This document shows, one piece after another, positions 29,725-50,849 of a stretch of 64,000 nt of DNA (position 1 is its first letter; every line of letters begins with the position of its first letter). The notes under the pieces are model-generated. The model did no database searches. It was not told the origin of the DNA and saw only the letters and a program-made list of their open reading frames with translations. A program made the translations under genes and the position numbers. Source of the stretch: Thermoplasmata archaeon (GTDB lineage: Archaea > Thermoplasmatota > DTKX01 > JAHFTX01); NCBI GenBank assembly GCA_023265395.1, contig JAHFTX010000008.1:9604-73603 (forward strand), in the 5' to 3' direction.

Positions 29725-29738
29725 CGAAAGCGTTATAT
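29725..29738 (+). promoter_or_regulatory. BRE/TATA promoter
   Basis: CGAAAGCGTTATAT; same motif as at 33180 and 50811. Confidence 0.6.
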
Positions 29739-29810
29739 CGCGTCCCTCCCGGTCAGCGCATCCTAGCGCTGTGTGCTCGCAAGGCCGCAGCTCTGCTCCC
29801 GAGGGCCTTC

Positions 29811-33143: not shown

Positions 33144-33179
33144 GGAGCGCCCGGCGACGCGCTAGTCAGCCACGGCCCA

Positions 33180-33190
33180 GAAAGGTTATA
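33180..33190 (+). promoter_or_regulatory. BRE/TATA promoter
   Basis: GAAAGGTTATA about 40 nt upstream of ATG 33229, with SD GGAGG between. Confidence 0.65.
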
Positions 33191-33228
33191 GGGCGCCCAG
33201 CGGCATCGAAAGGAGGCTGGGTGCTCTG

Positions 33229-36200
33229 ATGCTACCTGGTCGATGGACGAGCCTGCTGCCCCTGCTGGTCGTGGCACTGCTGGTCCTCCCCCTCCTGTCG
33301 GCGGCCGTCGCAACCGAGGCATCGGATCCTTCGTCGACCCATGGTCGGCAGCAGACCATTCCCAGCTGTCTCTCGACGCCAGTGGTAGATGGCTTCTACA
33401 ATAGCAGCGCGGAGTGGGTCGGCTCTCTCAACCTCGACATCGGCGTCAGCGGCAGGGCCGCCGAGCTGTACGTTTGTGCCGATGGGATGTCGCTCTACTT
33501 CCTGGCAGACCTCATCCAGGAGACGACCCCTGACCCGACCTCGGGCCCGCTGGCCGCCGACGGCGCGACCGAGTACTTCACGATCATCATCGACGGCGAC
33601 AACGATGGCGAGGTCACCTACGCGCAGAACCAACAGGGGTTCAAGCCCCCCGACCAAGGAGGTCAGAACGTCGACCATGGCGTCCTCGTGGGCAAGAACC
33701 TCACCACCCGCTGGGTCGGGCAGCTCTACACCGGTCAGGGCCTGACCTTTGCCACGCAGTGGAGCTACGCCGACATCTTCGCGTACAACTACAACGGCAG
33801 CGCCAACTTCGGCACCTCGCACCTGATCGCCGAGGTCTCGATCCCCTACGATGGCCCCGGTGATGTCCTGGGTGGTTCGATCTGGAAGGGTTTCGTCAAG
33901 GGCCTCTACATCGTCGGATTCGACAGCGCCCTGCCGGCAGGGGACCAGATGTATGCCTCCTGGCCCCAGCCCCCCCCGGCGGGTCTGGCCGGTGGCTTCG
34001 ACCCGATGACGTTGCCCCAGGAGCTCCCCCACATCCGGATCACCGACCCGGCGGTTGCTGATGGCCCCTTCGAGGTCGGGACGGCGGTGGTCGTCACGAC
34101 CGAGGCGACCGATGACTCGGTTGGCACCCTCACCTATCAGTGGGACCTCGATGGCACGCCCATCGCTGGTGCGACGGCGGCCACCTACCCGTTCGATCCG
34201 ACCGCCGCCGGATTCTACGATCTGCAGGTGACGGTCACCGACACCCAGAGCAATGCTGAGTCGGCCGACATGGTGATGGAATGGATCCCCCAAGAGACGG
34301 GACCGTCGACGGTCAGCACCGAGCCACCCGCTGGCGCTGTGGAGGGCGTCGAGGGCGCGGACCTTCCGCTGTCGTTGACCTACCAGGATCTCAATCTGGG
34401 CCAATCGGATGAGGCGGTGGCGGTCTCCTGGACCCTCAACGGTGCTGCCGTCACTCCCTCGAAGGTCTCGGGTTTCCAGGTCGATCCGACGACCCGGCGG
34501 ACCACCTACACATTCTCGACCGACTACGAGATGGCGGGCACCTACGCGGTCTCAGTCTTGGTCACCGACAGCTACCTCGATGCCGGGCTCACGACCTCGG
34601 CGACCTGGTCGGTGACGGTCGCCAACACCAACCGACCGCCCAAGATCGAGACGGCGACCCCAGCGGGCAACGCGATCGCCCTCAAGGAACTCGAGTCGGT
34701 GCAGTTCGAGATCTCGGCGACAGACCCCGACTCGGACACCCTCGAATACGCGTGGACCTTCGATGATCTCCCGCAGCCCCTCTCAGCGGGGGCGCTCAGC
34801 TTCACCTATCTGAGCGACCTCTCCTCTGCCGGTCCCCACACGGTGCGAGCGGAGGTCTCCGATGGCACCGATGAGGTCAACCGCACTTGGAGCGTGACGG
34901 TCGACAACCTCAACCAGGCCCCGCGGATCGTCTCCCTCTCCCCCGAGGGGGCCGTGGTACTCGACGAAGGCTCCAGTCAGACCTTCTCCGTCGTCGCCGC
35001 GGATGCCGACGAGGACTCGTTGACCTACCTCTGGCGGCTCAACGAGCTCGACATCGAGAGTGCCACCACTCCAACCTTCGTGTTCACAACGGCCTTCACT
35101 GGTCCGATGAGCGCAGGGGGCTACACCCTCGAGGTCATCGTCAAGGATGGCCACGTCAGCACCCCGACGAGCTGGGAGATCGAGGTCCGCAACGTCGATC
35201 GACCGCCGGTGGTCGTCTGGGCCTCGCCCCAAGAGGGCAGCACCTTCCCGCTCGGAAGCCGCGTCAACTTCATCGCCGGCGAGAGCAAGGATCCCGACGG
35301 GCACGCGCTGACGTACGCATGGGACTTTGGGGACGGGTCCAAGGCCGTCGAGGCGGTGCTCACCCATGAGTACCGCCAGCCGGACACCTATCAAGTGACC
35401 CTGACCGTCTCCGATGGTGGGACGCCCATCGTGCTCAGCCGCACCATCACGATCGAGGCAGCGGTGGTCTCGGTGACCTTCATCAAGGCCGAGCCAACGA
35501 CTGCCAAGGAGGGTAGCTCGATTCACCTCGAGGTGACCGTGCGCAACAGCGGAAACCTGGCGGTCGACGGCGTGGCGGTGACGCTGGTGATCGGGAGCTC
35601 TGTGTCTGCCCAGCTCTTTGCGAACCTCACCCCCCAGGCCGACCAGGTGCTGACCTTCGAATGGAAGGCGCGACCAGGTACCCACAAGGTCTCCGCCTCG
35701 ATCGCCCCAAAGGACGGGCTCCAGATCGATACCAGTGGCACCCCACCGAGTGTCACGCTCACGATCGAGGCCCTCCACCGGACCGACGATTCGGGACAAC
35801 CTTCGTTGTTGACATCGCCAGTGGTCTTGGGGGGGATCGTCGGGTTGCTGGTCGTGCTCATCGTGGTCGCGCTTATCGCCGCCAGGCGCGTCAAGGCGAA
35901 GCGCTACTCCGAGGGATTGATGGCCTCAGTACCAGCCCCTGCCGCGCCGATGACCTACCAGACCGACTACCAGGCGAGGGCGCTCTCCCAGGAGACCTTC
36001 GCCCGAGCTCTCCAGACGACCCAGACGCCAGCGGAGCGCTCCACGGCCTCGAGCAAGGCGCGCGTCTGCCCCCATTGCAAGGCCGAGGTGTTCGAGGAGA
36101 GTGCCGACTGCCCCTTCTGCTACAAGCCGATGGTGGTGGCGCCCCCGCCGCCAAAGCCCGTCATCGCTCCGCCTGCAGCCGTCCCCTCCGTACCTGTCAC

Positions 36201-36798
36201 ACCCAAGGGGCCGACCTGCCCCGCGTGCCACGAGCCGGTCGAGGCAGGCTGGAAGCTCTGCCCCTTCTGTGACCACGCACTCGGCGAGCCGTCTGCGCCA
36301 AGCAGCGCCGGTGCAGCAGGGACGAAGTCTGCCAGCACTCGGCCCACCTCAGCCAAGACCCACTGTCCCGCCTGCAACGAGGAGGTCGAACGGGATTGGA
36401 AGATCTGCCCCTTCTGTGACAACGAGCTCAAGGGCAGCTCACCGACTCCCCCTAGGTCGACCAGGCCCAGCGGCACCGCCGTCAGTGGGCCATCCCCTAC
36501 CAAAGGATCCGCAAGCGCGGCTCCGTCACGACCTTCGCCGACCAATGCTGCCAGCCCGTCGCCCAGGGGGGCTGCTCCCATCCCAGCGGTGGCCCCCCCC
36601 GCGGCGAGCCTCGCAGGCGCATTCACCAGCCGGCTGGCGACATTGCAGGCCGCTCTCGAGCGCGCGGAGGCGGGGGGGAAGCCCCGCAAGGACGTGCGCA
36701 ACTTCCTGACCCTGGCGCAGCGCAATCACGGCTCCGGGAAGCTCGACAAGGCGACCGAATACCTCGATAAGGCGCAGAAGGCCCTCGAGCCCTCCTGA
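33229..36798 (+). CDS. PKD/Ig/CARDB surface protein with TM helix and three cytoplasmic zinc ribbons
   Basis: Signal peptide, repeated N..P.I...D.D.D.L.Y.W Ig modules, PKD YAWDFGDG, TM helix, CPHC..CPFC and two CPAC...WK.CPFC units. Confidence 0.87.
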   Translation: MLPGRWTSLLPLLVVALLVLPLLSAAVATEASDPSSTHGRQQTIPSCLSTPVVDGFYNSSAEWVGSLNLDIGVSGRAAELYVCADGMSLYFLADLIQETTPDPTSGPLAADGATEYFTIIIDGDNDGEVTYAQNQQGFKPPDQGGQNVDHGVLVGKNLTTRWVGQLYTGQGLTFATQWSYADIFAYNYNGSANFGTSHLIAEVSIPYDGPGDVLGGSIWKGFVKGLYIVGFDSALPAGDQMYASWPQPPPAGLAGGFDPMTLPQELPHIRITDPAVADGPFEVGTAVVVTTEATDDSVGTLTYQWDLDGTPIAGATAATYPFDPTAAGFYDLQVTVTDTQSNAESADMVMEWIPQETGPSTVSTEPPAGAVEGVEGADLPLSLTYQDLNLGQSDEAVAVSWTLNGAAVTPSKVSGFQVDPTTRRTTYTFSTDYEMAGTYAVSVLVTDSYLDAGLTTSATWSVTVANTNRPPKIETATPAGNAIALKELESVQFEISATDPDSDTLEYAWTFDDLPQPLSAGALSFTYLSDLSSAGPHTVRAEVSDGTDEVNRTWSVTVDNLNQAPRIVSLSPEGAVVLDEGSSQTFSVVAADADEDSLTYLWRLNELDIESATTPTFVFTTAFTGPMSAGGYTLEVIVKDGHVSTPTSWEIEVRNVDRPPVVVWASPQEGSTFPLGSRVNFIAGESKDPDGHALTYAWDFGDGSKAVEAVLTHEYRQPDTYQVTLTVSDGGTPIVLSRTITIEAAVVSVTFIKAEPTTAKEGSSIHLEVTVRNSGNLAVDGVAVTLVIGSSVSAQLFANLTPQADQVLTFEWKARPGTHKVSASIAPKDGLQIDTSGTPPSVTLTIEALHRTDDSGQPSLLTSPVVLGGIVGLLVVLIVVALIAARRVKAKRYSEGLMASVPAPAAPMTYQTDYQARALSQETFARALQTTQTPAERSTASSKARVCPHCKAEVFEESADCPFCYKPMVVAPPPPKPVIAPPAAVPSVPVTPKGPTCPACHEPVEAGWKLCPFCDHALGEPSAPSSAGAAGTKSASTRPTSAKTHCPACNEEVERDWKICPFCDNELKGSSPTPPRSTRPSGTAVSGPSPTKGSASAAPSRPSPTNAASPSPRGAAPIPAVAPPAASLAGAFTSRLATLQAALERAEAGGKPRKDVRNFLTLAQRNHGSGKLDKATEYLDKAQKALEPS

Positions 36799-36802
36799 GC
36801 GT

Positions 36803-37246
36803 TCAATCGACGACGTCGAGGCGCAGTTCCTCGCCGGCGGAGGACCACGCCCTCCATGACCGGCGGGTGTAAGGATGGGCGATGATCAGGTGCACATCTC
36901 CTAGGCGGGAGAAGAACCCCAAGTCGGCCTCCGATGGGAAGGGATAGGGGCTTGGGTGCGAGTGGACCGACCCGATGATCAGTCTGCCCGAGCTGACGTT
37001 GGCGAACTGGACGATGGCATGGCGGTCCCCGCTGACGGTCCCAGGGATGAGGAGCAGGTCGTCGATCACCCCTTGCGTCTTTGAGGAGAGGATCCCGGAG
37101 AACTCCCGGGGGTGAGTCTGCGCGCTGCTCTGGAGGAGCATCTCTAGGAGACGGCCAGAGATCCTCCGATAGCGCGCGCTCCGTCGTCTTCCCTTTGAGG
37201 TCGACGATGGTGAGTCGCCGACCTTGATTCCGCGGATGCGCACCAT
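36803..37246 (-). CDS. JAMM/MPN+ metalloprotease (Mov34/MPN/PAD-1 family)
   Basis: E(REF)...HSHP......S.AD, matching the JAMM E-xn-HxH-x7-S-x2-D motif. Confidence 0.88.
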   Translation of the reverse strand: MVRIRGIKVGDSPSSTSKGRRRSARYRRISGRLLEMLLQSSAQTHPREFSGILSSKTQGVIDDLLLIPGTVSGDRHAIVQFANVSSGRLIIGSVHSHPSPYPFPSEADLGFFSRLGDVHLIIAHPYTRRSWRAWSSAGEELRLDVVD

Positions 37247-37388
37247 CGCCCGGCACCGTCGAGCTCTCTGCCGTGGTGTCGCTGCTTGAAGTCTGCGCTT
37301 TGCCCGCCTCGCTCCTCGGTGGCGCGATCGCGGTGCGACGGTGGGACTTTATAAGCCCGTCATCCTTGCCCACCTCGGAGCCCTCGAG

Positions 37389-37775
37389 ATGTCCGTCACC
37401 CAAGCTGAAGTACGGGAGCTCAAACCCAACAGATACATGGTCATCGACGGCGAGCCTTGCAAGATTATCTCCATCAGTGTCAGCAAGCCGGGCAAGCATG
37501 GTGAGGCCAAAGCCCGCATCGATGCCGTGGGCCTCTTCGACGATTCGAAGCGATCCGTCGTCCATCCGGTCAAGCACAAGATCAGCGTGCCGCTGATCGA
37601 CAAGCGCTCCGCGCAGGTCTTGGCGCTGGTGGGCAGCGATGTGCAGCTGATGGACATGTCGAGCTACGAGACCTTCGAGCTGCCCATCCCAGAGGAGTTC
37701 CGTGCCGAGATCTCCCCCGGCAAGGAGGTCTCATACTTTGAGGCCATGGGCCGGCGCAAGATCACTCGCGTCTGA
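37389..37775 (+). CDS. eif5a: Translation factor aIF5A
   Basis: Hypusination loop SKPGKHGEAK, VQLMD...YETFE. TTTATAA box at about 37348. Confidence 0.97.
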   Translation: MSVTQAEVRELKPNRYMVIDGEPCKIISISVSKPGKHGEAKARIDAVGLFDDSKRSVVHPVKHKISVPLIDKRSAQVLALVGSDVQLMDMSSYETFELPIPEEFRAEISPGKEVSYFEAMGRRKITRV

Positions 37776-37816
37776 ACCACCGTCCCTGGTGAGGGGACCG
37801 CGGCGGAGGTAGCATC

Positions 37817-38689
37817 GTGCAGGGTCGGAACAATCTTCAGTTTGCCGACGCGAACAGCACATACGCCGATTCGACCTTCGTGCTCTTTGGCGTGCCCTTC
37901 GACAACACCTGTTCCTTCCGGACCGGCGCCCGCTTCGGCCCCGCAGCGGTGCGGACCGCCTCGTACAACTTCGAGACGTGGCTCTTTGCCCATGGCATCG
38001 ACCTCGCGGAAGAGGCGATTTTCGATTGGGGAGACGTCCATGACTTCGCGATCGTCGACCAGATGGTCGCAGAGGTCGAGCAGGTGGCCACCCCGTTTGC
38101 CAAGGATGGCAAAGTCCCGATGGTCATCGGTGGTGAGCATTCCATCAGCGCACCGTGGATCGGTGCGTACGCCACGCGCAACAAGCTCGCCTGTATCCAG
38201 GTCGATGCCCACCTGGACTTCCGCGATTCTTACCAGGGTCTGGCCAACTCCCATGCCTGCGCTGCGGCGCGGATCGTGGACCGCATCGGAGTCGAGAACC
38301 ACGTGGTCATCGGCGCGCGGTCGATCTGCCGCGAGGAGCACGAGCGCGCCACCGAGCTGGGGTTGCGGTGGTACAGCGCCTTCGACGTCCGCGATCGCAC
38401 GCTCAAGGCCGTGGTGCAAGAAGCCCTCGATTACCTCAAACCCGAGCGCGTGATCGTCACGCTCGACATCGATGGGATCGACCCGGCCTATGCACCGGGC
38501 ACCGGCACTCCCGAGCCCTTCGGGCTGACCCCCATGGAGGTGCGCCAACTCCTCATCGAGGTCGGTCCGCGCCTGGTAGGGTTCGACGTCAATGAGATCG
38601 CGCCAGTCTACGACCAGGGGATCACTGCCGCTCTTGCGGCGCGCATGGTCCGCGAAGCGATGGGGATCGTCGCTCGCCATCGTGCCTGA
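37817..38689 (+). CDS. speB: Agmatinase
   Basis: GVPFD.T.SFR.GARFGP, GGEHS, DAHLD, SHAC, DID.IDPA.APGTGTPEPFG. Adjacent to aIF5A, as is common in archaea. Confidence 0.93.
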   Translation: MQGRNNLQFADANSTYADSTFVLFGVPFDNTCSFRTGARFGPAAVRTASYNFETWLFAHGIDLAEEAIFDWGDVHDFAIVDQMVAEVEQVATPFAKDGKVPMVIGGEHSISAPWIGAYATRNKLACIQVDAHLDFRDSYQGLANSHACAAARIVDRIGVENHVVIGARSICREEHERATELGLRWYSAFDVRDRTLKAVVQEALDYLKPERVIVTLDIDGIDPAYAPGTGTPEPFGLTPMEVRQLLIEVGPRLVGFDVNEIAPVYDQGITAALAARMVREAMGIVARHRA

Positions 38690-38697
38690 ACGGCCAT

Positions 38698-39417
38698 CTA
38701 CTCATCGATGGCGGCGAGCATCCGGGTGACATCGGGTTCGAGGCGGGGCTCCCGCGACGGCGGCGGCGGATGCGGTCCCACGGGGCGCAACGTGCTGACG
38801 TTCCGTTGGACCTGCAACATTCGCAAGTGGGCTGCAAGGGGGGCGGGCAGCAGCAGCAGGGCCGTCGCCACACCGTAGAGCGTGATCGCCCAGGAGCTCC
38901 CCAGTGGGACGGTCTGGAGCGTGGCGAGGGCCAGCAATGCGCAGCGTGTGAGAACGGCAAGGGTGCCGATGATGACGGACTCTCGCATGTCCATCTCCAT
39001 ACCCGCAAGCGCAATCGCCAGGATCACCACCGGGGTGGTCAGCAACACTGCCGATCCCACCAGGGGTGTGGTCCCCAAGACGGCGATGAGGAGCACGAGT
39101 GCGCGCACCACCCGCAGCTCCCAGCGCAAGCCATGGAGCCAGCGGGCGCCACGCACCATCGTCGGAATCGAGCCGAGCTGGAGAATCGCGGTGGTCACGC
39201 TGTCATGGGGCGCCCTGCCACCATGGTCTGCTGCAGCCATCAGGTGGGCCCGGAGGTCCGCCGTCAGGGTCGCGCGGGCCTGGGCCGGGACCATCCACAG
39301 CGCCGAGTCGAAGGTAGCTACATGCTCTTCGATGAGGCTCAGCCAGCGGGGCCGAGTGTCGAGGGTCCCGCCGTCGGGACGGCTGCGGCGCGGGTAGAGC
39401 CGCGAGGGCGTGCTCAC
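38698..39417 (-). CDS. Hypothetical membrane protein with HAAS-like N-terminal helical domain
   Basis: R..L..DLR.HL.....AI.QLG motif followed by about 4 TM helices. The GTG start overlaps the upstream stop (GTGA). Confidence 0.6.
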   Translation of the reverse strand: MSTPSRLYPRRSRPDGGTLDTRPRWLSLIEEHVATFDSALWMVPAQARATLTADLRAHLMAAADHGGRAPHDSVTTAILQLGSIPTMVRGARWLHGLRWELRVVRALVLLIAVLGTTPLVGSAVLLTTPVVILAIALAGMEMDMRESVIIGTLAVLTRCALLALATLQTVPLGSSWAITLYGVATALLLLPAPLAAHLRMLQVQRNVSTLRPVGPHPPPPSREPRLEPDVTRMLAAIDE

Positions 39418-39554
39418 GGGGCCCCCGTTGCGTCGTCGTCCGGCAGGGAGAGCCGCCAGCGCCGCCACAGGTAGGCCATGACCAGGGCACCGGTGAGCAG
39501 GAGGCTGACCCCCGCCTGGTACGCCATCAGTCCATCGTCGAGAAGAGGTCCCAT
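39414..39554 (-). CDS. Small single-TM protein, 46 aa (not in ORF track)
   Basis: MGPLLDDGLMAYQAGVSLLLTGALVMAYLWRRWRLSLPDDDATGAP*. SD GGAGG just before the ATG; TGA overlaps the next gene's GTG. Confidence 0.6.
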   Translation of the reverse strand: MGPLLDDGLMAYQAGVSLLLTGALVMAYLWRRWRLSLPDDDATGAP

Positions 39555-39658
39555 CGCCCTCCGTTGCCCTAGCGGTGCACTGGGCTATGCTTCTTCGCAC
39601 CGCGCGGCCGTCAGTGTGGGTGAACCTTAATATCGACCCGGCGGGCTTGGCCGAAGGC

Positions 39659-40747
39659 ATGCTAGTGGACTACTACGGTCTGCTAGGAGTCGCACCAACC
39701 GCCACACGGGAGGAGGTCAAGGCGGCCTACCTCAAGCTCGCCCGCAAGTTCCACCCGGACCTCAACCACAACAGCAAGGAGTCCGAGGAGCGGTTCAAGG
39801 ACCTCAACCTCGCCTACCAGGTGCTGGTAGACCCGCAGCAGCGGCGGGATTACGATCAGCAGCGGGCGGCGGCGCTGGGGGGGGGACCTGGGCAGGAGAA
39901 TGTCGGCTGGAGCACGCCTGAGTCTGCGGGAGGTAAAGCTCAGGGAAAGTCCGGAGGCCCCACTCTCTCACCAAACGACATCGTCTACGATGTCACCATC
40001 ACCCTCGAGGAGGCGGCGATTGGGGTGACCCGTGACTTGCAGGTTCCCTCCTGGGTCAGTTGCTACCAGTGCGGCGGGCTGGGCAGTGCCGATGGGACCA
40101 CCGCCGCCGCCTGCCAGGCCTGTGCTGGATTGGGCCAGATCCAACAGGTCGAGAACCGTGGGGGGCAACGGGTCAACAACCTTTCACCCTGCACTCGCTG
40201 CCGCGGGATCGGGAGGCTGACCACCAACCCCTGCACCGTCTGCAAGGGCCGGGGGAAGGTCACGCAGCACCAGGTCATGACCGTCTCGATCCCTCAGGGT
40301 GTCCACGATGGGGTCGCCTTGGAGGTCCCCATGCACGGGAACCCCATGCAGCCAGGCGGACGCATGTTCGTGCGGGTGTCGATTCCCGCACACCCCAAGT
40401 TCAAGCGCGACGGTACCGACGTGCGTTCCAAGCTTTCCATCCCCTTTTCGATGGCCGCGATGGGCGGTGAGGTCGATGTCCCCACCCTCCAAGGAGTCTC
40501 GCGGTTGAGCGTGCCCCAGGGCACCGATGGGGGGACCGTCTTCCGAATCAAGGGCAAGGGGATGCCCGACCCCTATGGGGGCAGTCATGGCGATCACCTG
40601 GTGGCCGTCCGAATCGAGGTTCCCACGGACCTGACCGAAGAACAGCGCCAGCTCCTGCGCGAATACGCTCGCGCCCGAGGTGAACCCCTGCCAGAGGCGC
40701 GGCCTCCAGGTTGGAAGGGGAGCGGCCTTGGTGGCCGCTGGCGCTAG
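39659..40747 (+). CDS. dnaJ: DnaJ/Hsp40 chaperone with zinc finger
   Basis: DYY.LLGV, HPD, four CxxCxGxG repeats, C-terminal HP.F.R.G.D / GKGMP / GD..V. CTTAATA box at about 39626. Confidence 0.92.
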   Translation: MLVDYYGLLGVAPTATREEVKAAYLKLARKFHPDLNHNSKESEERFKDLNLAYQVLVDPQQRRDYDQQRAAALGGGPGQENVGWSTPESAGGKAQGKSGGPTLSPNDIVYDVTITLEEAAIGVTRDLQVPSWVSCYQCGGLGSADGTTAAACQACAGLGQIQQVENRGGQRVNNLSPCTRCRGIGRLTTNPCTVCKGRGKVTQHQVMTVSIPQGVHDGVALEVPMHGNPMQPGGRMFVRVSIPAHPKFKRDGTDVRSKLSIPFSMAAMGGEVDVPTLQGVSRLSVPQGTDGGTVFRIKGKGMPDPYGGSHGDHLVAVRIEVPTDLTEEQRQLLREYARARGEPLPEARPPGWKGSGLGGRWR

Positions 40748-40917: not shown

Positions 40918-42021
40918 ATGGGGTCGATGGCCACTCCCGTTGTCGATCCGGTCGGGACGGTGGCGATACTCAGCGGGGAGGCGCCAGAGCTTGCCGCAGC
41001 GGAGCTTCTCACACTGGTGGAAGGGGAGGGGTGGCGAGGGTCCGCCAAGCTGCTGCAGCCCCGGCTGGTGCTCGTACGTCCAGCCCTTGAGGCGCCCCTT
41101 GCAGCGGTGGCCCTCGAGCGGCTGGGTCTGACCCATCGTCTCATCGCACTCTGGGCAGAGGCGCACTTCGATGGGTCTCCCGCCAGCTTGCCGCAGAGGG
41201 TGCCATTGCCCGAGGGGACCTTCTGCGTCCGTGTCGAGCGGGTCTCGGGGTCTTGGCCCACCCTCGACGTCCCCCAGCTGCAGCGCACCCTGGGGGAGCG
41301 TTGGGGCACTGCTCCCCGGAACCCAGTGTCCCTAGTCGATCCGGGGACAGAGGTCCGGGTGGTGCTCCAAGGAGAGCTTGCCTTCATCGGTGCGACATTC
41401 GGGACGATCGAGCGAGGGCCTTTCCAGAAGCGCCATGTCCGCAACCGGCCCTTCTTCCGGCCGGTCTCCCTCAGCCCCCCGATCGCCCGAGCGCTCGTGG
41501 TCCTCAGTGGCGTGCGCCCCCCGCAGGCCATCCTCGACCCATGCTGTGGGACAGGGGGCTTCCTCTTGGAGGCTGCTTCTGCTGGGGTGCCCTGCATCGG
41601 GGCTGACATCGATTCGCAGATGGTACAGGGTGCTCTGGCCAACCTCGACCATTTGGGCCTTGCGGCGACCGCCATGGTCTCAAGCCCACTGGGGGAGCTT
41701 GGAGCGCTGCTGCGGGGCCGCGGGCTTGCGACTGGCGGGATGGTGACCGACCTTCCCTACGGGCGCTCGAGCACCCTCTTTGGGAGCACACCCGAGCGGG
41801 TCGTGGAGGATGTCCTTGCACTGGCGATGGAAGTCCTCTCACCGGGCGCGCACATCGTCCTGGTCAGCCCTCAACCTATCAGGGAGGGCGCAGTCCCAGA
41901 AGGGCTGGAGGTCGTTGACCGTTTTTCCCTTCGGGCGCACCGCAGCCTGACCCGGTACATCGTCCGCCTGCGCCGCCGAGCACCCGACCCCGCAGCAGAG
42001 GCAGAACTCCGCAAGGCTTAG
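40918..42021 (+). CDS. trm11: tRNA (guanine-10-N2)-dimethyltransferase-like protein (THUMP plus SAM-dependent methyltransferase)
   Basis: LSGE.PELA.AE, RPFF.PVSL.P..ARALV.L, LDP.CGTGG.L.EA, G.DID..MV.G...NL, TD.PYGRS, HRSLTR.I. Confidence 0.85.
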   Translation: MGSMATPVVDPVGTVAILSGEAPELAAAELLTLVEGEGWRGSAKLLQPRLVLVRPALEAPLAAVALERLGLTHRLIALWAEAHFDGSPASLPQRVPLPEGTFCVRVERVSGSWPTLDVPQLQRTLGERWGTAPRNPVSLVDPGTEVRVVLQGELAFIGATFGTIERGPFQKRHVRNRPFFRPVSLSPPIARALVVLSGVRPPQAILDPCCGTGGFLLEAASAGVPCIGADIDSQMVQGALANLDHLGLAATAMVSSPLGELGALLRGRGLATGGMVTDLPYGRSSTLFGSTPERVVEDVLALAMEVLSPGAHIVLVSPQPIREGAVPEGLEVVDRFSLRAHRSLTRYIVRLRRRAPDPAAEAELRKA

Positions 42022-42046
42022 GACGCGTCAAGGGCTGCCGTCGCCC

Positions 42047-42595
42047 ATGAGCCGCGGGCCGCGCACGTTCCACTTGCTGTTCCTGGGCGACAAGGACGTC
42101 GGGATCACCAGCCTGATCGAACACACCCCCATCGACTACGCTGGCGAAGGAGATTGGGGCTTGGGGATCGAATTCTACCAACAGAATGTCCGCCTGCAGG
42201 AGGGGCCCGCCCGCCTGGTCATGTTCGAGCTCGGCCGCGAGGATTCCTTTGCCACCGTCGCTCGCAACTTCAAGCGAGACTGCGGCGTCATCCTCGTCTA
42301 TGACGTCACCCGCCCGACGACCTTGGCCAACGTCCTCGACACCTTCTCCCGCCTCAAGCCCCACCTGCCGGAGGTCATCCCCCGGATCCTCGTCGCCAAC
42401 AAGGCGGACCTCGAGGATTCTCGGGAGGTCGACACCCCAGCGGGGTTCGCCGCAGCATCGGCAATCGACGCCGAGTACCTCGAGACCTCGGTCGTGGACA
42501 AGGATCGGGAGAACATCCAATTGGTCTTGACCGACATCGCTGAGGCCATCGCCCACGTCGACTTCGACGAGGGCGACTCTCAAGACCTCGAGTAA
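42047..42595 (+). CDS. Rab-like small GTPase with degenerate G1-G3 motifs
   Basis: G1 GDKDVGITS, LGIEF, RLVMFELGREDSF, LVYDVT, G4 ILVANKADL, G5 YLETSV. Confidence 0.82.
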   Translation: MSRGPRTFHLLFLGDKDVGITSLIEHTPIDYAGEGDWGLGIEFYQQNVRLQEGPARLVMFELGREDSFATVARNFKRDCGVILVYDVTRPTTLANVLDTFSRLKPHLPEVIPRILVANKADLEDSREVDTPAGFAAASAIDAEYLETSVVDKDRENIQLVLTDIAEAIAHVDFDEGDSQDLE

Positions 42596-42662
42596 GTCCC
42601 GAAGGTAGGACCGTCGCCGCTCCCGCGGGGCGGGCTCCAATGCCCGCCCCGCTGCCTTCCTG

Positions 42663-45600
42663 CTACTTGTGGCGAGCCGTCTGGCTGACGATCGCGGCCA
42701 TCGGAGGGTCGAGCGCGGACTGCGCGATGGCGGGGTCGGCCTCTGCCGCAGCTGCTCCAAGCAGTTGGGTCAGCGATAGCGCGCTCGCTGCGCCCGTGGT
42801 CAAGGAGACACCCCCGACAACTGGCGCCACGGTGGTCACGAGCACGAAGCCGCCGGCGAGGCTCCCATGGTTGGAGAGACCGACCTGTCGCCCGCCGGTA
42901 GGTCCAAGCTCGCGGCTGGACGTGGGTTTGCTGCGCGAATCATGGGGGTTGGTCGGCCAGGGATCGGCGCGATACTCATCGATGTTGCTCCATTGGTCGG
43001 CGTCAGGGTCCCCGGCAGAGCCGTTGTCGCCGATCGGCTCCCGGTCGTTGAGGTTGTAGACCTTCTCGTACCAGAAGGGGATCAAATCCTGGTCTCCATC
43101 GGTCAGGAACAGCAGGAAGTAGGCATCCGGGATCGGGATGGGCAGCACCAGCGGGCGCCCGTTCCCGTCGAAGAGGTTCTTCGAGATGATGGGGCTGAGG
43201 TACTGCGAGGGGTCGGTGGTCAGCTCGTTGATACCATCGGCGTCGACATCCGTGCCCGCGACGTATTCCTGGAGGTTGGGGAAGCTCTCGTTCTCCCAGA
43301 TGGGGTCGATGAACCCGTCCCCATTGAAGTCCTTGCGGGTGATGATCCAGTTCTCGCCCTCGTCGTACTGGAGGTTGCCGTTCGCATCGTTGAACTTGCT
43401 CGAATAGTTCATGCCGTCCTGGTCGGGATCGTCATACCAGTCGGTGGGAACCAATGGGTCGATGGTGTACTTGTTCGTCCCATTGATCGGCCGCCCATAT
43501 GCGACCTCGAAACCGTCTGGCATCCCATCCCTATCACTGTCGGGGTCGAGCGGGTCGGTCTGCCCAAAGGGACGCCGGAACTCCTCGACGTCCTCCAACC
43601 CGTCCTGGTCGATGTCGCCATCGAGGGAGGAGGGGATGATCGGGTTGAGGGCATTGGTGCCCTTGGCGACGACGCGAAGGGGGCGTTCGGGCAGTCCCGA
43701 GGGAATCACCCCGGGGATCTTGTCCCGGTCATCATTGGCGGTATCGCCGTCCGTGTCATTGCCGTTGTACGTGAACCCAGTCCGAGGGTCCTCCCAGGCC
43801 ATCACGGGGATGGTGCGGTAGACGTTCTGCCCCATAACCCGTTGCAGCTCCACGCTGCTTTCGGCGTCGACCCAGGTGCGTTCCCACTCCTGGAGGTTGG
43901 TCCAGTTGTCGCCATAGGTGAATCCCGCGGCTGGGCCATCGGAATTGTCTCCCGGGTCGCAGGCTTGCAGGTACGTGCTGCCGGCGGTAGGCTCGAAGTA
44001 GAGGCGTTCCCACCAGTCGGCGATGCCATCGGGCTCTGAGTCGAAGGCGTCGTCGCTGAATGCCCACTCATGGTTCCACCAATCGTCCCCCTTGCCATTG
44101 CTGGGGTCGGTGTTGTAGATCCACTCGTCGATGTTATGGAAGCCGTCGTTGTCCTTGTCCCCCTTGCCGTCGGAGTTGAGGATGGGGTTGAGGTCATAGA
44201 TCCGCTCCCACCAGTCGGGCATCCCGTCGCGATCGGTGTCCGAATAGACCGGCTGCCGGAGCAGCAGTGGGCGGCCCGAGGGGTCGAGATAGGTGTCGGA
44301 ACCGTCAAGGATGTCGTCCGCATCGGTGTCGGGATTGAATGGCTCCGTGCGGTGCTGGTACTCTGCGATGTTGTTGAACCCGTCGAGGTCGAAGTCCTCC
44401 TCGCTGTCGAGCACGTCGTCATCGTTGGGGTCGGAGGCATCGGAGTTGATGCGGGTCGGGTCGAGCTTGAACAGCCCGTAGGCGAGCTCCCAGAAGGTCG
44501 GCAGGCCGTCCTTGTCGAGGTCCGAGTGGTCGAACTCGAAGCCGTCGGTCATGCCGTCATAGTCACTGTCTTGCAGCTTGGGGTCGGAGCTGTTGACGAT
44601 CCCGACGGTGCTATAGACCACTTCGAAGCGGAGGACAGACCCGTCGATGTCTTTGATGGGACGGATCTTGGGGTTCCCAACGTCCTGCCCGTCGATTGGG
44701 TCGAAGTCCGTCAGCACCTCCAGGCCGTCCGAGAGCCCATCGCTATCGCTATCGGCCCGCAGGGCGTAGGGCCTGACCGTCGCACGCTGGTTGTTGACGG
44801 GCGTCCAGATATCGATTCCCAAGACCTCTTGGAGGTCGGAGAGACCGTCGCCGTCGCTATCGGACTGAGTCGGGTCGAGGTACTGCCATCCGGCGTCGGG
44901 GTCGGCATCGATAGTGTACAACTCGTCGAAGTCGGAGATCCCATCACCATCGGTGTCAGGGGCCGAGGCGTTGAGGGTGTAGCCGCGGAGGCGGCCGCGG
45001 ACCTCGTTGTAGTCGTTGAGGTCATGCTCCTCGTTGGGGTTGGAGCTCCCGTCATTGTCATCGTCGATGTCCTGGCCGTTCTTGGGTCCATCGAGGATGT
45101 ACTCCTCGTCGGCGCCGAAGTAGTTGTCCCCATCCTCATCGTCAGAAACGTCGTCGAGGTCGGTGTCAATCGCAGTGGCGCAGGTGAAATACCGTTCTTC
45201 CTTGTCGTTGACCCACACTAGCCATCCCTTGATGATCTCCTCGTCGTCGTGGAGCCGATCCCCGTCGGTGTCGAGCTTGAATGGGTCGGTGTTGTTGTAG
45301 TACTCTTCCAAGTTGAGCAGCCCATCGGGATGGGAAGCCCCGGTCTCGTCGAGATCGTTGTCTTCTTGGGCGTCCGCTGCGCGAAGCGGATCGAGATGAT
45401 AGGCCACCTCCCACCCATCTGGGATCTTGTCGCTGTCGGTGTCGGGGTCTTTTGGATGGGTCCCTGCGTCGAACTCGGCGATGTTCTGCAACTCATCGCC
45501 ATCAGGGTCAGCGAAACGGTCGTTGGGGTCGAGTGGATTGAGGCCGTAGTAGATCTCCCAGCCGTCGAACATGTGGTCGCCATCGGTGTCCGGGTTGATC

Positions 45601-46898
45601 GGGTCCGTGCCGTAGATGCAGATCTCAGCGAAGTCGATTGCCAAGCGCCCCCCCCGCTCGAGCCCCAAGCCGGTCGGCTTCTCCTGGTAACTGTCGCGGT
45701 CGGTGTCGGGGTCGCCCGGGTCAGTGCCAAGGTGGTATTCGTCGATGTTGAATCCGGTGATCCCTTGCGCGTCTCCGGTACAGTTCTCAGAGACCCCATA
45801 GTTGGCAGCGTCCTGGTCAGGATCGAGGTAGCGGTCCCCCGGATAGGTCGGGTCGATCGGCACGATCCACTCCCAGAACGGGACCCCCCGGTCGTTGGTC
45901 GAGTTGACATGGCCGAGTCCGTAGAATGCCTCCCAGCCATCGGTCATGCCGTCTGCATCGGTGTCCGCGTTGACGGGCGAGGTCTCGTTGAGTGGGTTGA
46001 GCAGGTCCTCGAGGTCGACATCGAACCGAGCCTGGTACTCCATGATGTTGGTGAACTGCTCACCGCCCCGAATGACCAGCTTGGGATCGGGGTCATTGGC
46101 GTTGAAGCAGGGTGCCAGTGGCCGCTGGAAGCAAAAGATTCCCTGGATGTCCACTAGGTCATTGGTCCCGACGCCGCCGAGGCTGGGGCCATGCAGCTCC
46201 ACGGGGCGGTTGCCGCGGGATTGGACCTCCACGGAGAGGTTCTGCAGTTGTTGGGCGTCCAGGTCTGCGATTGAGAACCGGATGATGTTATCGACCTCCC
46301 CGCCGAGCCCCAGCCGGTAGGAACCATTGTCGTCGACGACAGCGTGCTCGATTCGCACCGAAGAGCCGCTGAATTCGAGCTTGTTGCTGAGCAGGTTCTC
46401 GACCGTCTTGATCTCGTAGTCGCTGTTGGGTGCGACCTTGAGGTCCGAGAGGAAGACGTTGTCGAAGAAGGAATCAATACGGCCGTTGTGGTTGAAGTCG
46501 TAGCCGTCCCCGTCGGGGTCCTCATAGGCGTCGGTCGGGTCGTTGGGGTCGACGTTGAACTGGTTGGTGAATAGGTCACGCACACCGTACTTGACCTCCC
46601 AGGCGTCGCCGATCCCATCCCCGTCGGTATCGGGGTTGCTCTCGTTGGTACCGTACCGATAGTTCTCGGCGAGGTTGGAGAGGCCATCGCCATCGGTATC
46701 AACCTCGGGGAGCGCGACGTCCTTCTGCGCGACTGAGAACTTGATGTCCGGACTCTTGTCGACGGCGGTCGAACCCTGGTTCGAGAAGGCAATCGCCCCA
46801 GCGACGAGCAGCAGCGCCACGATGAGCACGACGACGCTGATGATCACATCGTACCGCTTGATGCGGTCCATCTGCTTCCATTGGTCCCAAAAGCCCAT
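42663..46898 (-). CDS. Giant acidic Ca2+-binding repeat protein (thrombospondin type-3-like DTDGDG repeats) with N-terminal membrane anchor
   Basis: TM VIISVVVLIVALLLVAGAIAF. More than 20 D(T/S/P)DxDGxxD..E....T.P repeats. Confidence 0.87.
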   Translation of the reverse strand: MGFWDQWKQMDRIKRYDVIISVVVLIVALLLVAGAIAFSNQGSTAVDKSPDIKFSVAQKDVALPEVDTDGDGLSNLAENYRYGTNESNPDTDGDGIGDAWEVKYGVRDLFTNQFNVDPNDPTDAYEDPDGDGYDFNHNGRIDSFFDNVFLSDLKVAPNSDYEIKTVENLLSNKLEFSGSSVRIEHAVVDDNGSYRLGLGGEVDNIIRFSIADLDAQQLQNLSVEVQSRGNRPVELHGPSLGGVGTNDLVDIQGIFCFQRPLAPCFNANDPDPKLVIRGGEQFTNIMEYQARFDVDLEDLLNPLNETSPVNADTDADGMTDGWEAFYGLGHVNSTNDRGVPFWEWIVPIDPTYPGDRYLDPDQDAANYGVSENCTGDAQGITGFNIDEYHLGTDPGDPDTDRDSYQEKPTGLGLERGGRLAIDFAEICIYGTDPINPDTDGDHMFDGWEIYYGLNPLDPNDRFADPDGDELQNIAEFDAGTHPKDPDTDSDKIPDGWEVAYHLDPLRAADAQEDNDLDETGASHPDGLLNLEEYYNNTDPFKLDTDGDRLHDDEEIIKGWLVWVNDKEERYFTCATAIDTDLDDVSDDEDGDNYFGADEEYILDGPKNGQDIDDDNDGSSNPNEEHDLNDYNEVRGRLRGYTLNASAPDTDGDGISDFDELYTIDADPDAGWQYLDPTQSDSDGDGLSDLQEVLGIDIWTPVNNQRATVRPYALRADSDSDGLSDGLEVLTDFDPIDGQDVGNPKIRPIKDIDGSVLRFEVVYSTVGIVNSSDPKLQDSDYDGMTDGFEFDHSDLDKDGLPTFWELAYGLFKLDPTRINSDASDPNDDDVLDSEEDFDLDGFNNIAEYQHRTEPFNPDTDADDILDGSDTYLDPSGRPLLLRQPVYSDTDRDGMPDWWERIYDLNPILNSDGKGDKDNDGFHNIDEWIYNTDPSNGKGDDWWNHEWAFSDDAFDSEPDGIADWWERLYFEPTAGSTYLQACDPGDNSDGPAAGFTYGDNWTNLQEWERTWVDAESSVELQRVMGQNVYRTIPVMAWEDPRTGFTYNGNDTDGDTANDDRDKIPGVIPSGLPERPLRVVAKGTNALNPIIPSSLDGDIDQDGLEDVEEFRRPFGQTDPLDPDSDRDGMPDGFEVAYGRPINGTNKYTIDPLVPTDWYDDPDQDGMNYSSKFNDANGNLQYDEGENWIITRKDFNGDGFIDPIWENESFPNLQEYVAGTDVDADGINELTTDPSQYLSPIISKNLFDGNGRPLVLPIPIPDAYFLLFLTDGDQDLIPFWYEKVYNLNDREPIGDNGSAGDPDADQWSNIDEYRADPWPTNPHDSRSKPTSSRELGPTGGRQVGLSNHGSLAGGFVLVTTVAPVVGGVSLTTGAASALSLTQLLGAAAAEADPAIAQSALDPPMAAIVSQTARHK

Positions 46899-46937
46899 GT
46901 CCAGCACACTCCTTCCCGTTGCGGTAGGTCCGATAGC

Positions 46938-47414
46938 TCAATTGCGCCAGGGTCGCGTCATCCACCATCGGGAGGTGACGACGACGAGCGTGACGCCGAT
47001 GACCATGCTCATCAGTGTTAGGGTTCCGACCTGGCTGGGGTCGACCACGGGAACCTCGAACCAGACGAGGTAGACCGCCAGGGCGATCAACGCGACCCCA
47101 CCAAGCCACAGAGGGGTGCTCAGCATCAGCGAGACCGAGACGTTCTCCGGGTGCAGGAGTTTCTGCCCCTTGCGCGTGAGCTGGTAGTAGACCCACTTGC
47201 GGTCCTCTTCGAGCTTGGTGACCAAGCCAACCTCCACCAGCCGTTCGAGGTGGCCATGGGCGGTGCTCTTGCTCACCCGTAGGCTCCGTGCTAGGTCGGA
47301 GACCGTCTGTTGATGCTCGTCGAGCTGCTTGAGGATGTCAATGCGCAGCGGGTGGGAAAGGGCCCTGAAGGACTCAGCATCCAACAACACGTGGCCGAAT
47401 ATTCGCATGGACAT
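46938..47414 (-). CDS. ArsR-family winged-helix regulator with two C-terminal TM helices
   Basis: FRALS.P.R..ILK.L....TVSDL...L..SKST...HL..L...GLV...EDRKWVYY.LT.KG, then two hydrophobic helices. CTTAAGTA box at 47433-47440 on the - strand. Confidence 0.88.
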   Translation of the reverse strand: MSMRIFGHVLLDAESFRALSHPLRIDILKQLDEHQQTVSDLARSLRVSKSTAHGHLERLVEVGLVTKLEEDRKWVYYQLTRKGQKLLHPENVSVSLMLSTPLWLGGVALIALAVYLVWFEVPVVDPSQVGTLTLMSMVIGVTLVVVTSRWWMTRPWRN

Positions 47415-47882
47415 CACTTGAGGAGGCCGACGATACTTAAGGGTTGTAGCAATCGTTCGGAACTCCAGAACACGGATATCATCATCGGCAACCCAATGGC
47501 ATTCTGGGAATCGAAGTCTACTTACGAGAGAACTGCTTCGGCCCTACGTATTCCAGAGTTCCAACCCTACAATCATTCTCGATTCGCTGGCAACTTCCCG
47601 GTGTCACTCGGAAGGCAGCCAGACGCCTGGTGGATACCGCCAAGATCGGAGGTCGCCAGGCTCAGCGCTCACTGGCGCTGGTCGATGGGAGCACGCCCGA
47701 GGAGCTTGGGGGCAATCCCGCTCGTATTTCAATCCCGCCGCTGGGGCGTCAGACAAGCGGGGGATTTGGGAGGCCGAATGGCCACCGATTGGCCAAGGAT
47801 GGCTACCCGCGGGCAGCCTGCTGAGAAAGGGATATGAACCTTCTCTAGCAGCCTGTCGGACAAAACTCAAGCACCACCGATA

Positions 47883-49073: not shown

Positions 49074-49215
49074 CGACTGCGATCGCAGGGGGGCCCCCCT
49101 CCCTGCCATCCGTCCAGTCCAGCTCGTTGTGGGGGCCCCATGGGCCCCCACCCCTGGCCAAACCTTTCGTGGAAAAGGCCTTAGCCGGGGCCCAGGCATC
49201 CTGATTCTCGTGTAT

Positions 49216-50112
49216 ATGCGCGACTGTACCGGCAGGCAGCGCCCTTCGCTGGGTAAGGGTTGGCACCGTGGCATTGCCATCGTTGCGATGGTGGGGGCGT
49301 TGCTCCTCATGCCCTTCGTCGTGAGTGCCGCCAGCGGCCCCGACCTGCAGTTGCGCGATTCGGAGCTGCAAGTCAGTGGCGGAGCGTCCCCAGGGCCTGT
49401 AGTCGGAGATATCCTGCAGGTCAGCGGTATCATCCACAATGTCGGCAGTGTCGCCAGCGGCGTCACGCTCGAACTGCGGGTGGGCGATGCCGTCGTCCAG
49501 CGCCAGCCGATTCTAGGTACCATCGCCAGCGACACTCCTTTCACCTTGCCGTGGAACACAAGTGGCGTGGCCCCTGGGACAGTGACGCTGCGAGTCAGCG
49601 CACTCGTCACCAACGATACCTCACCGCTCGACAACATCGCGGTGGTGAGCCTTCTGCTGGCCCCTTCCGCGGGCAACGGAGGGCGTCTGGAGGTCCTCGA
49701 CCTCGTCCTCAGTGACGGCACGCCCGTGGCCCAACAGGACGTGGAGGTGCGGTTCACGGTGCGGAACGTCGGCAACGCGAGCGCGACCACCGATGTCACG
49801 CTCAAGGACGGCACGAAGGTCATCCAGCGATGGGCTGGCCAGACCATCGGAGCGGGTGAGTCGCGTACGTATGAGGCGACCCACGCCTTTGTCGGCGGGG
49901 ATCGGACCGTACGGGTGGTGATGAGCAGCCATCCCGAGGCGACCTATGCTCGGCGGATCGTCGTCGAGGCGGGGCAACGGACAGCCTGCGCCCTTGCGGT
50001 CCCAACAGTGGTACTTCCCCTGGGGCTGCTCAAACTGCGCACTCATCGTCGATCTCGCGGAGATATCCAGGCTGGACCATCGGGAGACGGCGCGCCGCGC
50101 GATCCGGAGTGA
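49216..50112 (+). CDS. Secreted two-CARDB-domain protein with Cys-containing C-terminal anchor
   Basis: Signal helix, two 'I/V.N.G..A' CARDB modules, C-terminal TACALAVPTVVLPLGLLKLRTHRR. Confidence 0.7.
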   Translation: MRDCTGRQRPSLGKGWHRGIAIVAMVGALLLMPFVVSAASGPDLQLRDSELQVSGGASPGPVVGDILQVSGIIHNVGSVASGVTLELRVGDAVVQRQPILGTIASDTPFTLPWNTSGVAPGTVTLRVSALVTNDTSPLDNIAVVSLLLAPSAGNGGRLEVLDLVLSDGTPVAQQDVEVRFTVRNVGNASATTDVTLKDGTKVIQRWAGQTIGAGESRTYEATHAFVGGDRTVRVVMSSHPEATYARRIVVEAGQRTACALAVPTVVLPLGLLKLRTHRRSRGDIQAGPSGDGAPRDPE

Positions 50113-50119
50113 CCCTCTC

Positions 50120-50764
50120 ATGGGCAAGGCGTGGTTGCGCGATCGGCGACGTGATGGCTACTACCGGATGGCCAAACGCCTGAACTATCGCTCTCGTGCT
50201 TCCTTCAAGATATTCCAGATCGATGACCGGTATCGGATCTTCCGACCTGGGGGGTTGGTCGTCGACCTGGGTGCCTCGCCGGGGGGGTGGAGCCAAGCAG
50301 CGGCCGAGCGGGTCGCCCCCAATGGGTTGGTCGTCGCCGTCGATACCGCGACGATGGCACCTCTCGAACGCGTCACCGTGTTGCGGGGCGACGTCCGCAG
50401 CGAGGAGACTCGACGAGACATCCTTGGAGCATTGGCGGGCCGCCATCCCAACGTCGTCCTCTCCGACATGTCCCCCAACTTGGCGGGTAACGCCTCCCTC
50501 GATCAGTCGCGGTCCGCTGAGCTGGCGCAATCGGCGCTCGATGTCGCCCGCTCGCTCCTGCGGTCACGGGGTCATCTGGTGGTCAAGATCTTCCAAGGAG
50601 AGGACTTCCCTGAGTTCTTGCGACAAGTCCGTGCGGACTTCCGATTCACCAAGGCCCACAGCCCCAAGGCCAGCCGCTCGGCGAGCAGTGAGATCTACAT
50701 CGTGGCCAAGGGCTATCGCGGTCCACCTGGAGACGATTCCGAGGAGAGCGCATCGGAGGAGTGA
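50120..50764 (+). CDS. rlmE: 23S rRNA 2'-O-methyltransferase RlmE (FtsJ)
   Basis: D.YYR.AK...YRSRA.FK, VVDLGASPGGWSQ, VLSDMSP, VVKIFQG, PKASR..S.E.Y (K-D-K-E tetrad). Confidence 0.95.
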   Translation: MGKAWLRDRRRDGYYRMAKRLNYRSRASFKIFQIDDRYRIFRPGGLVVDLGASPGGWSQAAAERVAPNGLVVAVDTATMAPLERVTVLRGDVRSEETRRDILGALAGRHPNVVLSDMSPNLAGNASLDQSRSAELAQSALDVARSLLRSRGHLVVKIFQGEDFPEFLRQVRADFRFTKAHSPKASRSASSEIYIVAKGYRGPPGDDSEESASEE

Positions 50765-50810
50765 TTCCTCCGGTGCCCCGGACCTCTCTTCTCCCGTTGT
50801 GGGACGTGAC

Positions 50811-50821
50811 GAAAGGTTAAT
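50811..50821 (+). promoter_or_regulatory. BRE/TATA promoter
   Basis: GAAAGGTTAAT about 30 nt upstream of ATG 50850. Confidence 0.6.
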
Positions 50822-50849
50822 CCCCCAAGGACAGGACCTGTTCATCTCG

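Follow-up and report, generated by a model that had tools for sequence, protein, structure and literature searches.

A predicted pseudo-GTPase of Ras/Rab-like fold and the rare family to which it belongs in a Thermoplasmata-type archaeon

The gene and its altered G motifs

The DNA analysed here, referred to as the window, is a stretch of 64,000 nucleotides (nt) on contig JAHFTX010000008.1 of a Thermoplasmata archaeon (assembly GCA_023265395.1; the genome carrying the window is designated G000). One DNA sequencing run contains this stretch and may be its source; no RNA run containing it is listed. The window encodes a protein of 182 amino acids (aa), P0001, that is predicted to be a pseudo-GTPase of Ras/Rab-like fold, with its catalytic motifs lost and its sequence conserved under selection (Table 1). 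The open reading frame (ORF) is real and contains a Ras-family G domain, as an earlier note made from the sequence alone had proposed: the translation matches the Pfam family Ras (PF00071) with an E value of 6.2e-21 over profile positions 2–160 of 162, and its score passes the cut-off of 21.6 bits. The Pfam family Roc reaches 21.5 bits, which is under its cut-off of 27, and NCBIfam provides only the generic small_GTP domain, also under cut-off. A 293-aa ORF on the opposite strand (41879–42760) has no support and is regarded as a high-GC artefact.

The P-loop GDKDVGIT pairs with GEQSVGKT of Rab6 in HMMER alignments of P0001 to Rab6, Rab39B and Rab1B, which places Ile at the site of the Walker-A Lys. 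Further along the HMMER alignments, W37 occupies the column of the switch-I Thr of Rabs and ELGRE pairs with DTAGQ, the identity of the family described below to the G3 consensus being 0.02. None of the features of an active switch, namely the G1 Lys, the G2 switch-I Thr and the G3 DxxG(Q), is present in P0001. NKAD and ETSV pair with NKTD and ETSA of Rabs and are intact. The C-terminal tail is acidic and contains no Cys, and a prenylation Cys is absent from the tails of all seven full-length database members of the family. The earlier note had listed each of these losses and retentions, including the ATC codon of I20, and all of them are borne out by the translation and by the Rab and family alignments. 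The AlphaFold2 (AF2) model of P0001 has the canonical beta/alpha order with a six-stranded sheet and five helices (predicted local distance difference test score, pLDDT, 76.4; predicted template modelling score, pTM, 0.77).

Table 1. Coordinates of the pseudo-GTPase gene, its motifs and the adjacent features in the window
Feature	Position	Strand	Remarks
Coding sequence of the Rab-like pseudo-GTPase P0001, 182 aa	42047..42595	+	ORF and translation; PF00071, 75.1 bits; family alignments
G1/P-loop GDKDVGIT, residues 14–21; Walker-A Lys replaced by I20	42086..42109	+	
I20 codon ATC	42104–42106	+	
Switch I/interswitch, remodelled: D30...E34..W37-G38-L-G40-I-E-F43	42134..42175	+	D30, E34 and G40 invariant
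G3 remnant ELGRE in place of DxxGQ, residues 61–65	42227..42241	+	E61 invariant; family pattern E-[LIMV]-[GA]
G4 NKAD, residues 118–121, intact	42398..42409	+	NKxD in 11/11 members reaching that far
G5 ETSV, residues 146–149, intact	42482..42493	+	ETS[VA] in 11/11 members reaching that far
Trm11-type archaeal tRNA (guanine-10-N2) methyltransferase	40918..42021	+	25 nt before the ATG of the pseudo-GTPase
GC-rich perfect 11-nt inverted repeat in the spacer between the convergent genes	42625..42652	.	RNA fold −40.1 kcal/mol, z −5.1
Convergent 1414-aa surface protein with TSP3-type Ca-binding repeats and an N-terminal membrane anchor	42663..46907	-	Syntenic in relatives

Conservation, Rab-likeness and placement of the family

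A word-indexed search of 5.8 billion proteins identified a single close relative, the 117-aa fragment P0003, which is 78% identical to P0001 and shares GDKDVGIT and FELGRE. The full HMMER scan with P0001 covered 1.84 billion representative proteins and gave 6977 matches at E<=0.001; among the best single-domain matches are P0007, P0009, P0011 and P0016, all four of which carry G-x3-V-G-I-[TS] and E-[LIMV]-[GA]. Two further members, P0154 and P0155, were brought in by a profile search, and a metagenome scan with P0155 provided four genes (L143–L146) that are 80–91% identical to it as well as a C-terminal piece (L147). With P0001 as the query, the scan of metagenome contigs gave no relative. The family alignment spans 34–78% identity to P0001. 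PF00071 is matched by 11/11 aligned members, the reading frame is intact in all sequences, and some members carry basic N-terminal extensions.

The family P-loop follows the pattern G-x3-V-G-I-[TS]-S. The earlier note had asked whether the GIT P-loop is conserved in orthologs and under purifying selection, and both questions are answered in the affirmative. Ile is present at the P-loop Lys site in all 12 family sequences with a visible P-loop (about 35–91% identity) and GKT in no ortholog, and the five family genes with DNA encode this residue by ATC, ATC, ATT, ATA and ATA, that is, by all three Ile codons. Thirteen columns are invariant (G14, V18, G19, I20, S22, D30, E34, G40, L57, E61, V84, D86 and P112), W37 is near-invariant and position 31 is aromatic. 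The ratio of nonsynonymous to synonymous substitution rates (dN/dS, Nei-Gojobori) lies between 0.083 and 0.229 in 6/6 pairs among L143–L146; synonymous sites are saturated in the pairs that include the window copy. Because the Ile site, the G4 and G5 motifs and the invariant columns are conserved and dN/dS is low, the altered motif set is a selected trait of a family and not a one-off decay. The family profile had no family-level match in 400 further genomes belonging to the same phylum as the window (252.9 bits in G000, 96.4 bits for the next best) and none in 401 genomes from another euryarchaeal phylum, that of a Methanoculleus genome (E<=1e-25; a weak blank, as nothing rang in that set). 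The family is accordingly rare as judged by these profile scans, and its nearest non-family match is P0156, a Rab-like protein of Thorarchaeota (101 bits).

The top sequence and fold matches of P0001 are Rab proteins; the earlier note had allowed that they might be MglA, Arf or Roc, and none of MglA, Arf-Sar and Roc is the best fold or profile match. Among the PDB matches listed, 60/60 are Rab, Ypt or Sec4 proteins (HMMER, 50–57 bits). The ten highest Foldseek hits to the model are all Rabs (Rab10, Rab1b, Rab8a), with MRas at rank 11. A VIA-align fold search gives a tie of Rab, Ras and RGK proteins, comprising Sec4p (Z 19.3), Gem, Rab3C, Ypt32, AGAP1, Rab28, RASL12, MRas and Rheb (18.2); MglA (Z 14.8), Arf6 (14.7) and Sar1 (13.6) are lower than the 17–19 of the Rab/Ras/RGK group. 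Neighbours in the ESM Atlas at 0.95–0.96, which serve as leads only, include IFT27, kappaB-Ras, giant-virus Rab-likes and Promethearchaeota Rab-likes.

The likeness to eukaryotic Rabs (Rab1/6/8/10/11, Sec4/Ypt) extends to the RabF5 stretch LVYDVT, which is shared, to the conservatively similar RabF1 stretch LGIEF and to the layout NKxD...R.V...ETS[AV]. P0001 differs from eukaryotic Rabs in lacking the P-loop Lys, the switch-I Thr, DxxGQ and the C-terminal prenyl Cys, and RabF2, RabF3 and RabF4 are not conserved. All five Rab-family (RabF) positions had been called recognisable in the earlier note. The five stretches do align, but only RabF5 and, conservatively, RabF1 look Rab-like: identity to a consensus drawn from 24 eukaryote-type Rabs is 2/5 for RabF1, whose three other positions are conservative changes, 1/5 for RabF2, 1/6 for RabF3, 1/5 for RabF4 and 5/6 for RabF5. 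The canonical paralogs in G000 match the RabF2 and RabF4 consensus better than P0001 does.

When scored by phmmer in one database, P0001 reaches 17–28 bits with its own canonical paralogs, 22–45 bits with paralogs from the phylum, and 44 bits each with Thor and Loki proteins. Eukaryote-type Rabs score 58–73 bits, though these rows were pre-selected as the best matches from 1.8 billion proteins. A canonical paralog also scores 85–97 bits to Rabs, and the higher Rab scores are hence no evidence that P0001 is a captured eukaryotic Rab, since slow-evolving Rabs attract any divergent relative. Because the canonical paralog shows the same Rab matches, Rab-likeness is not special to P0001, and the term Rab-like would apply to it only loosely.

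G000 encodes eight canonical Rab-like small GTPases with intact GK[ST], DxxG and NKxD (contigs C11, C24, C17, C75 twice, C46, C58 and C56), and P0001 has the lowest score of the nine higher PF00071 matches in this genome. These paralogs, which are Rab-like or Rup-type, resemble P0001 in fold, size, Pfam family and the absence of a lipid anchor and reside in the same genome; they differ in keeping the motifs that P0001 lacks, and no tree nests the pseudo-GTPase family among them. The paralog on contig 11 finds a Thorarchaeota Rab as its best PDB match (9.5e-27), followed by Rab21, Rab27B and Rab6. All 11 genomes of the same class have from 5 to at least 11 Ras-family matches each. Across the phylum such matches are patchy (150/301 genomes) and whole families are without them, e.g. 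0/36 and 0/21; the control for this count rings in 13/14 genomes, and weak Ras-family matches are therefore other GTPases. Rab-like proteins are already in print from a Thermoplasmatales archaeon, Aciduliprofundum, Thermofilum and Caldiarchaeum, according to PMC4915359, as are the prokaryotic Rup and MglA families, according to PMC4316618. The multi-copy sets found here are further evidence for Rab-like proteins outside Asgard archaea and bear on how eukaryote-signature such proteins are.

Three more divergent Ras-family paralogs are encoded in G000. The first (C47:5261–5791) carries the P-loop GDSGVGKK and, at its N terminus, a CxxC pair resembling a zinc ribbon, the second (C60:37685–38059) reads FDLPAEQ and is without the G3 glycine, and the third (C40:1203–1691) reads WDFPQPD and has CQAD in place of NKxD. 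These three may be further degenerate G proteins.

Phylogenetic trees contained one Ras-type reference and no Rho, Ran or Arf sequences, and placement is based on candidate trees and approximately unbiased (AU) tests, as the ultrafast bootstrap (UFBoot) did not converge. The pseudo-GTPase family is monophyletic (Shimodaira-Hasegawa-like approximate likelihood ratio test, SH-aLRT, 98). In every unconstrained tree it is sister to the Thorarchaeota protein P0156 (SH-aLRT 84–88), and the six best candidates from a long tree search show the same relation. In the best trees the family joins the Asgard Rab-likes within or adjacent to the eukaryote-type Rabs. A constraint joining the family with the canonical Thermoplasmata paralogs was not rejected in any of four AU tests. 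Under the C20 mixture the constrained tree lies 36 log-likelihood (lnL) units above the quick tree (p-AU 0.883), which means that the quick tree is not the best one; under LG+F+G4 it is 25–33 lnL units worse (p-AU 0.227), leaving out the G1, switch-I and G3 columns gives p-AU 0.134, and comparison with the best candidate tree gives 0.091. The phylogeny that the earlier note had called for thus gives an Asgard Rab-like sister in the best trees and does not reject a union with the canonical paralogs, and the placement leans to the Asgard Rab-likes without significant support. Asgard Rab-likes (Thorarchaeota Rab, PDB 7ezb; P0156) resemble P0001 in the respects given above and, as reported in PMC10933270, also have no prenyl Cys. 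The same source describes Thor-Rab as having intact motifs and measurable GTPase activity, whereas P0001 is motif-depleted and resides in a Thermoplasmata-like host.

Predicted mechanism and alternative explanations

In textbook G-domain chemistry, GTP hydrolysis and sensing of the gamma-phosphate depend on the P-loop Lys, on the Thr and Gly that contact this phosphate and on the catalytic Gln. Because these residues are lost in P0001, it would be expected neither to hydrolyse GTP nor to switch in the classical manner. The contacts to the guanine base and to Mg and the alpha- and beta-phosphates are strictly kept (NKxD, ETS[VA], the aromatic residue 31, the glycine-rich P-loop backbone and Ser22), and for this reason a guanine nucleotide, or another guanine ligand, is probably still held and would be held permanently. 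As a module of fixed conformation, P0001 would act through the remodelled, family-invariant face of switch I/II (D30, E34, W37 and E61). This face is a likely interaction surface, for which the canonical paralogs, Trm11 and three Roadblock/LC7 proteins are candidate partners. The explanation favoured here, with modest confidence, is that P0001 is a permanently guanine-loaded, non-switching binding module that serves as a scaffold or a regulator.

The IRG proteins of vertebrates could provide a precedent. As described in PMC2532785, the IRG proteins with a GMS P-loop regulate those with GKS, mutants in their nucleotide site lose that function, and Irgm3 is reported to co-precipitate with GTP. 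By analogy, a protein with a Lys-less P-loop can still depend on nucleotide. Irgm1–3 and P0001 have in common the replacement of the P-loop Lys by a hydrophobic residue as a conserved trait, and the IRG GMS proteins are regulatory and need their nucleotide site. They differ in that the IRG GMS proteins belong to a larger, unrelated, dynamin-like and membrane-bound family and keep the other G motifs, whereas the P0001 family has lost G2 and G3 too. Several points weigh against permanent guanine loading. Phosphate binding could be disfavoured by the pocket, where three acidic residues (D30, E34 and E61) are invariant and no invariant Lys or Arg compensates for them, and G4 and G5 might be kept for the stability of the fold alone. 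The AF2 model is poor at switch I (pLDDT <50 for residues 26–38), and the geometry of the pocket is not established by it.

The same acidic residues surround the former phosphate site, as would be expected if P0001 were instead a nucleotide-free (class i) pseudo-GTPase, with a pocket that is empty or self-filled by acidic side chains and a role solely as a scaffold for protein-protein interaction. This is a credible but doubtful explanation. The residues that hold phosphate and Mg (Lys, Thr and Asp) are gone, and class i pseudo-GTPases such as AAGAB (its psGD; PMC12490416), CENP-M and the pG1 and pG2 domains of p190RhoGAP (PMC10211241) are likewise G folds without catalysis that act as interaction modules; p190 pG1 matches the P0001 model with Z 12.9. 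These proteins have also lost G4 and G5, whereas the P0001 family strictly conserves both, retaining NKxD and ETS[VA] in 11/11 members at 35–42% identity to P0001. According to PMC12490416, AAGAB does not keep G4 and G5 counterparts that support guanine binding. The Mg ligand position, Ser22, is also invariant in the P0001 family, which argues against an empty site.

In a second explanation, P0001 is an IRGM-like attenuator that binds the G domains of the canonical paralogs in G000 and locks them in a single nucleotide state. All eight have intact G1, G3 and G4 motifs, and the change of the P-loop Lys to a hydrophobic residue parallels the GMS and GKS forms of IRG proteins (PMC2532785). The pseudo-GTPase gene is not linked to any paralog gene, however, only 17–28 bits connect P0001 with its own paralogs, and the same-class genomes with 5 to at least 11 Ras-family matches are without the pseudo-GTPase family, so this role is judged unlikely.

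P0001 could also be an accessory subunit of the adjacent Trm11 tRNA m2G10 methyltransferase. The two genes are on the same strand with a 25-nt gap, Trm11 lies directly upstream of the pseudo-GTPase in 4/4 loci with upstream DNA (the window, L143, L144 and L145), and the basic N-terminal extensions of some members would suit such a role. The gene order is collinear over 15–20 kb, however, and the adjacency may be merely inherited with this whole block. G000 has its own homolog of Trm112, the known partner family of Trm11, and the idea of P0001 as a Trm112 replacement is weakened by it. Trm11 is present in 28/31 relatives, of which the 27 besides G000 are all without the pseudo-GTPase family, and a Trm11 subunit is considered very unlikely.

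It is highly improbable that P0001 is a still-active GTPase with a non-canonical mechanism or with residues supplied by a partner. Catalytic residues are supplied in trans to some GTPases, and a partner-supplied Gln has been proposed for Group 1 Rup proteins (PMC4316618), but four separate elements of P0001, the Lys, Thr, Asp/Gly and Gln, are missing at once, with no basic residue that is invariant in their place. Neutral drift of a decaying paralog, for which the low rank of P0001 among the PF00071 matches of G000 might speak, can be dismissed, being contradicted by the dN/dS values of 0.08–0.23, the motif set invariant in 12 sequences, the Ile conserved across different codons and the frame intact in all members.

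To our knowledge, pseudo-GTPases are known almost solely from eukaryotes. Neither an archaeal pseudo-GTPase nor this family is described in the literature searched. P0001 joins two known kinds of protein, the pseudo-GTPase and the archaeal Rab-like GTPase, and a prokaryotic small G protein in which phosphate chemistry is gone and the guanine motifs are strictly kept would represent a natural experiment on a switch-less G fold. A more far-reaching and rather improbable proposal, drawn by analogy, is that a true Rab-clade protein, either retained in a Thermoplasmata-type lineage or acquired by it from Asgard archaea, was turned there into a permanently loaded, non-hydrolysing G-I-T guanine-nucleotide module. 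If this were true, the G-I-T P-loop would be analogous to the G-M-S of IRGM, and the family would be the first in archaea to consist of pseudo-GTPases. The module might then serve as a brake on the co-resident canonical Rab-likes similar to a guanine nucleotide dissociation inhibitor (GDI), or as their link to the giant adhesin and cell-division cluster.

Neighbouring genes and host lineage

The start of the Trm11 gene was set at the first ATG compatible with the family model; the reading frame itself is open from 40711. Its product matches PF01170 and scores 207 bits with TIGR01177, under the cut-off of 316; the PDB entries 5e71 (6.9e-31) and 6zxw (5.3e-27) are matched, and DPPYGR is invariant across 15 aligned Trm11 homologs. 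A second proximity of Trm11 and a small GTPase is found in 5/5 genomes of the sister family f3 (G002:C79, G005:C89, G007:C289, G009:C15 and G010:C7; loci L181–L183), where a single gene separates Trm11 from a divergently oriented canonical Ras-like GTPase at a distance of about 2 kb.

Downstream of the pseudo-GTPase, the arms of the inverted repeat (GCGGGGCGGGC and GCCCGCCCCGC) are separated by a 6-nt loop and lie between two convergent stop codons with no T-run after them. From the predicted RNA fold, this hairpin is the likely transcript end for both convergent genes. The TSP3 surface protein encoded on the other strand is weakly CglD/MtsD-like. This protein and its convergent counterpart in a relative are 1300–1400 aa long, and such a gene is found downstream of the pseudo-GTPase in L143 and L147. 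Past it, L147 encodes an ArsR-type regulator with membrane segments, FtsZ, a CARDB protein and the A-ATPase subunit B in the same order as in the window. Identities between the window and the contigs of the relatives are 82% for AtpB, 65% for FtsZ, 57% for the ArsR-type regulator, 54% for the TSP3 protein (L143), 42% for the GTPase and 31% for Trm11. Because gene order and these identities are shared, the window gene and its counterparts on these contigs are positional orthologs.

The ArsR-type winged-helix regulator of the window (46938–47417, reverse strand) lies between the TSP3 giant and FtsZ, in the same place as its counterpart in L147, and the C-terminal half is hydrophobic and probably membrane-spanning. 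Giant predicted surface proteins are clustered at 29676–36798, 42663–46907 and 49129–56156, interleaved with FtsZ and housekeeping genes. The cluster comprises an FG-GAP protein (1155 aa), a protein with PKD and a double zinc ribbon (1189 aa), the TSP3 protein (1414 aa), a CARDB protein (327 aa) and an FG-GAP/He_PIG/Big_9 protein (1986 aa). A longin-like domain had been suspected in the protein encoded at 50196–56156, but Pfam does not identify one even at E up to 10; only FG-GAP, He_PIG, FG-GAP_3, Big_9, BACON_2 and Cadherin_5 are matched at that threshold.

The window also encodes an A-type ATPase operon, FtsZ and DnaJ. The best 80 of 598 confirmed AtpA relatives in named genomes are 56–79% identical and include no Asgard archaeon; they belong to Methanomicrobiales, Methanosarcinales, Thermoplasmata, Poseidoniales, haloarchaea and similar groups. 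The window forms a long branch of the AtpA tree that groups weakly with Methanomicrobiales (SH-aLRT 93). Seven of the best 120 FtsZ relatives carry an organism label, which reads Thermoplasmata archaeon for six and Euryarchaeota archaeon RBG_16_68_13 for one. Profiles for actin, Snf7 and profilin had no match in G000, which is 88.7% complete, although the profilin control rang nowhere and its blank says little. The host is thus a groundwater Thermoplasmata-type archaeon and not an Asgard archaeon, in agreement with the earlier note.

Long ORFs with no Pfam match are present at window positions 36726–39660 (283, 338 and 320 aa, reverse strand) and in L143 (2815–5766, 983 aa, reverse strand), and some of them may be spurious in DNA of 65% GC. 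Near the start of the window, positions 2–9921 contain two very long ORFs, one of 1118 aa on the forward strand with an open 5' end and one of 1473 aa on the reverse strand (5500–9921).

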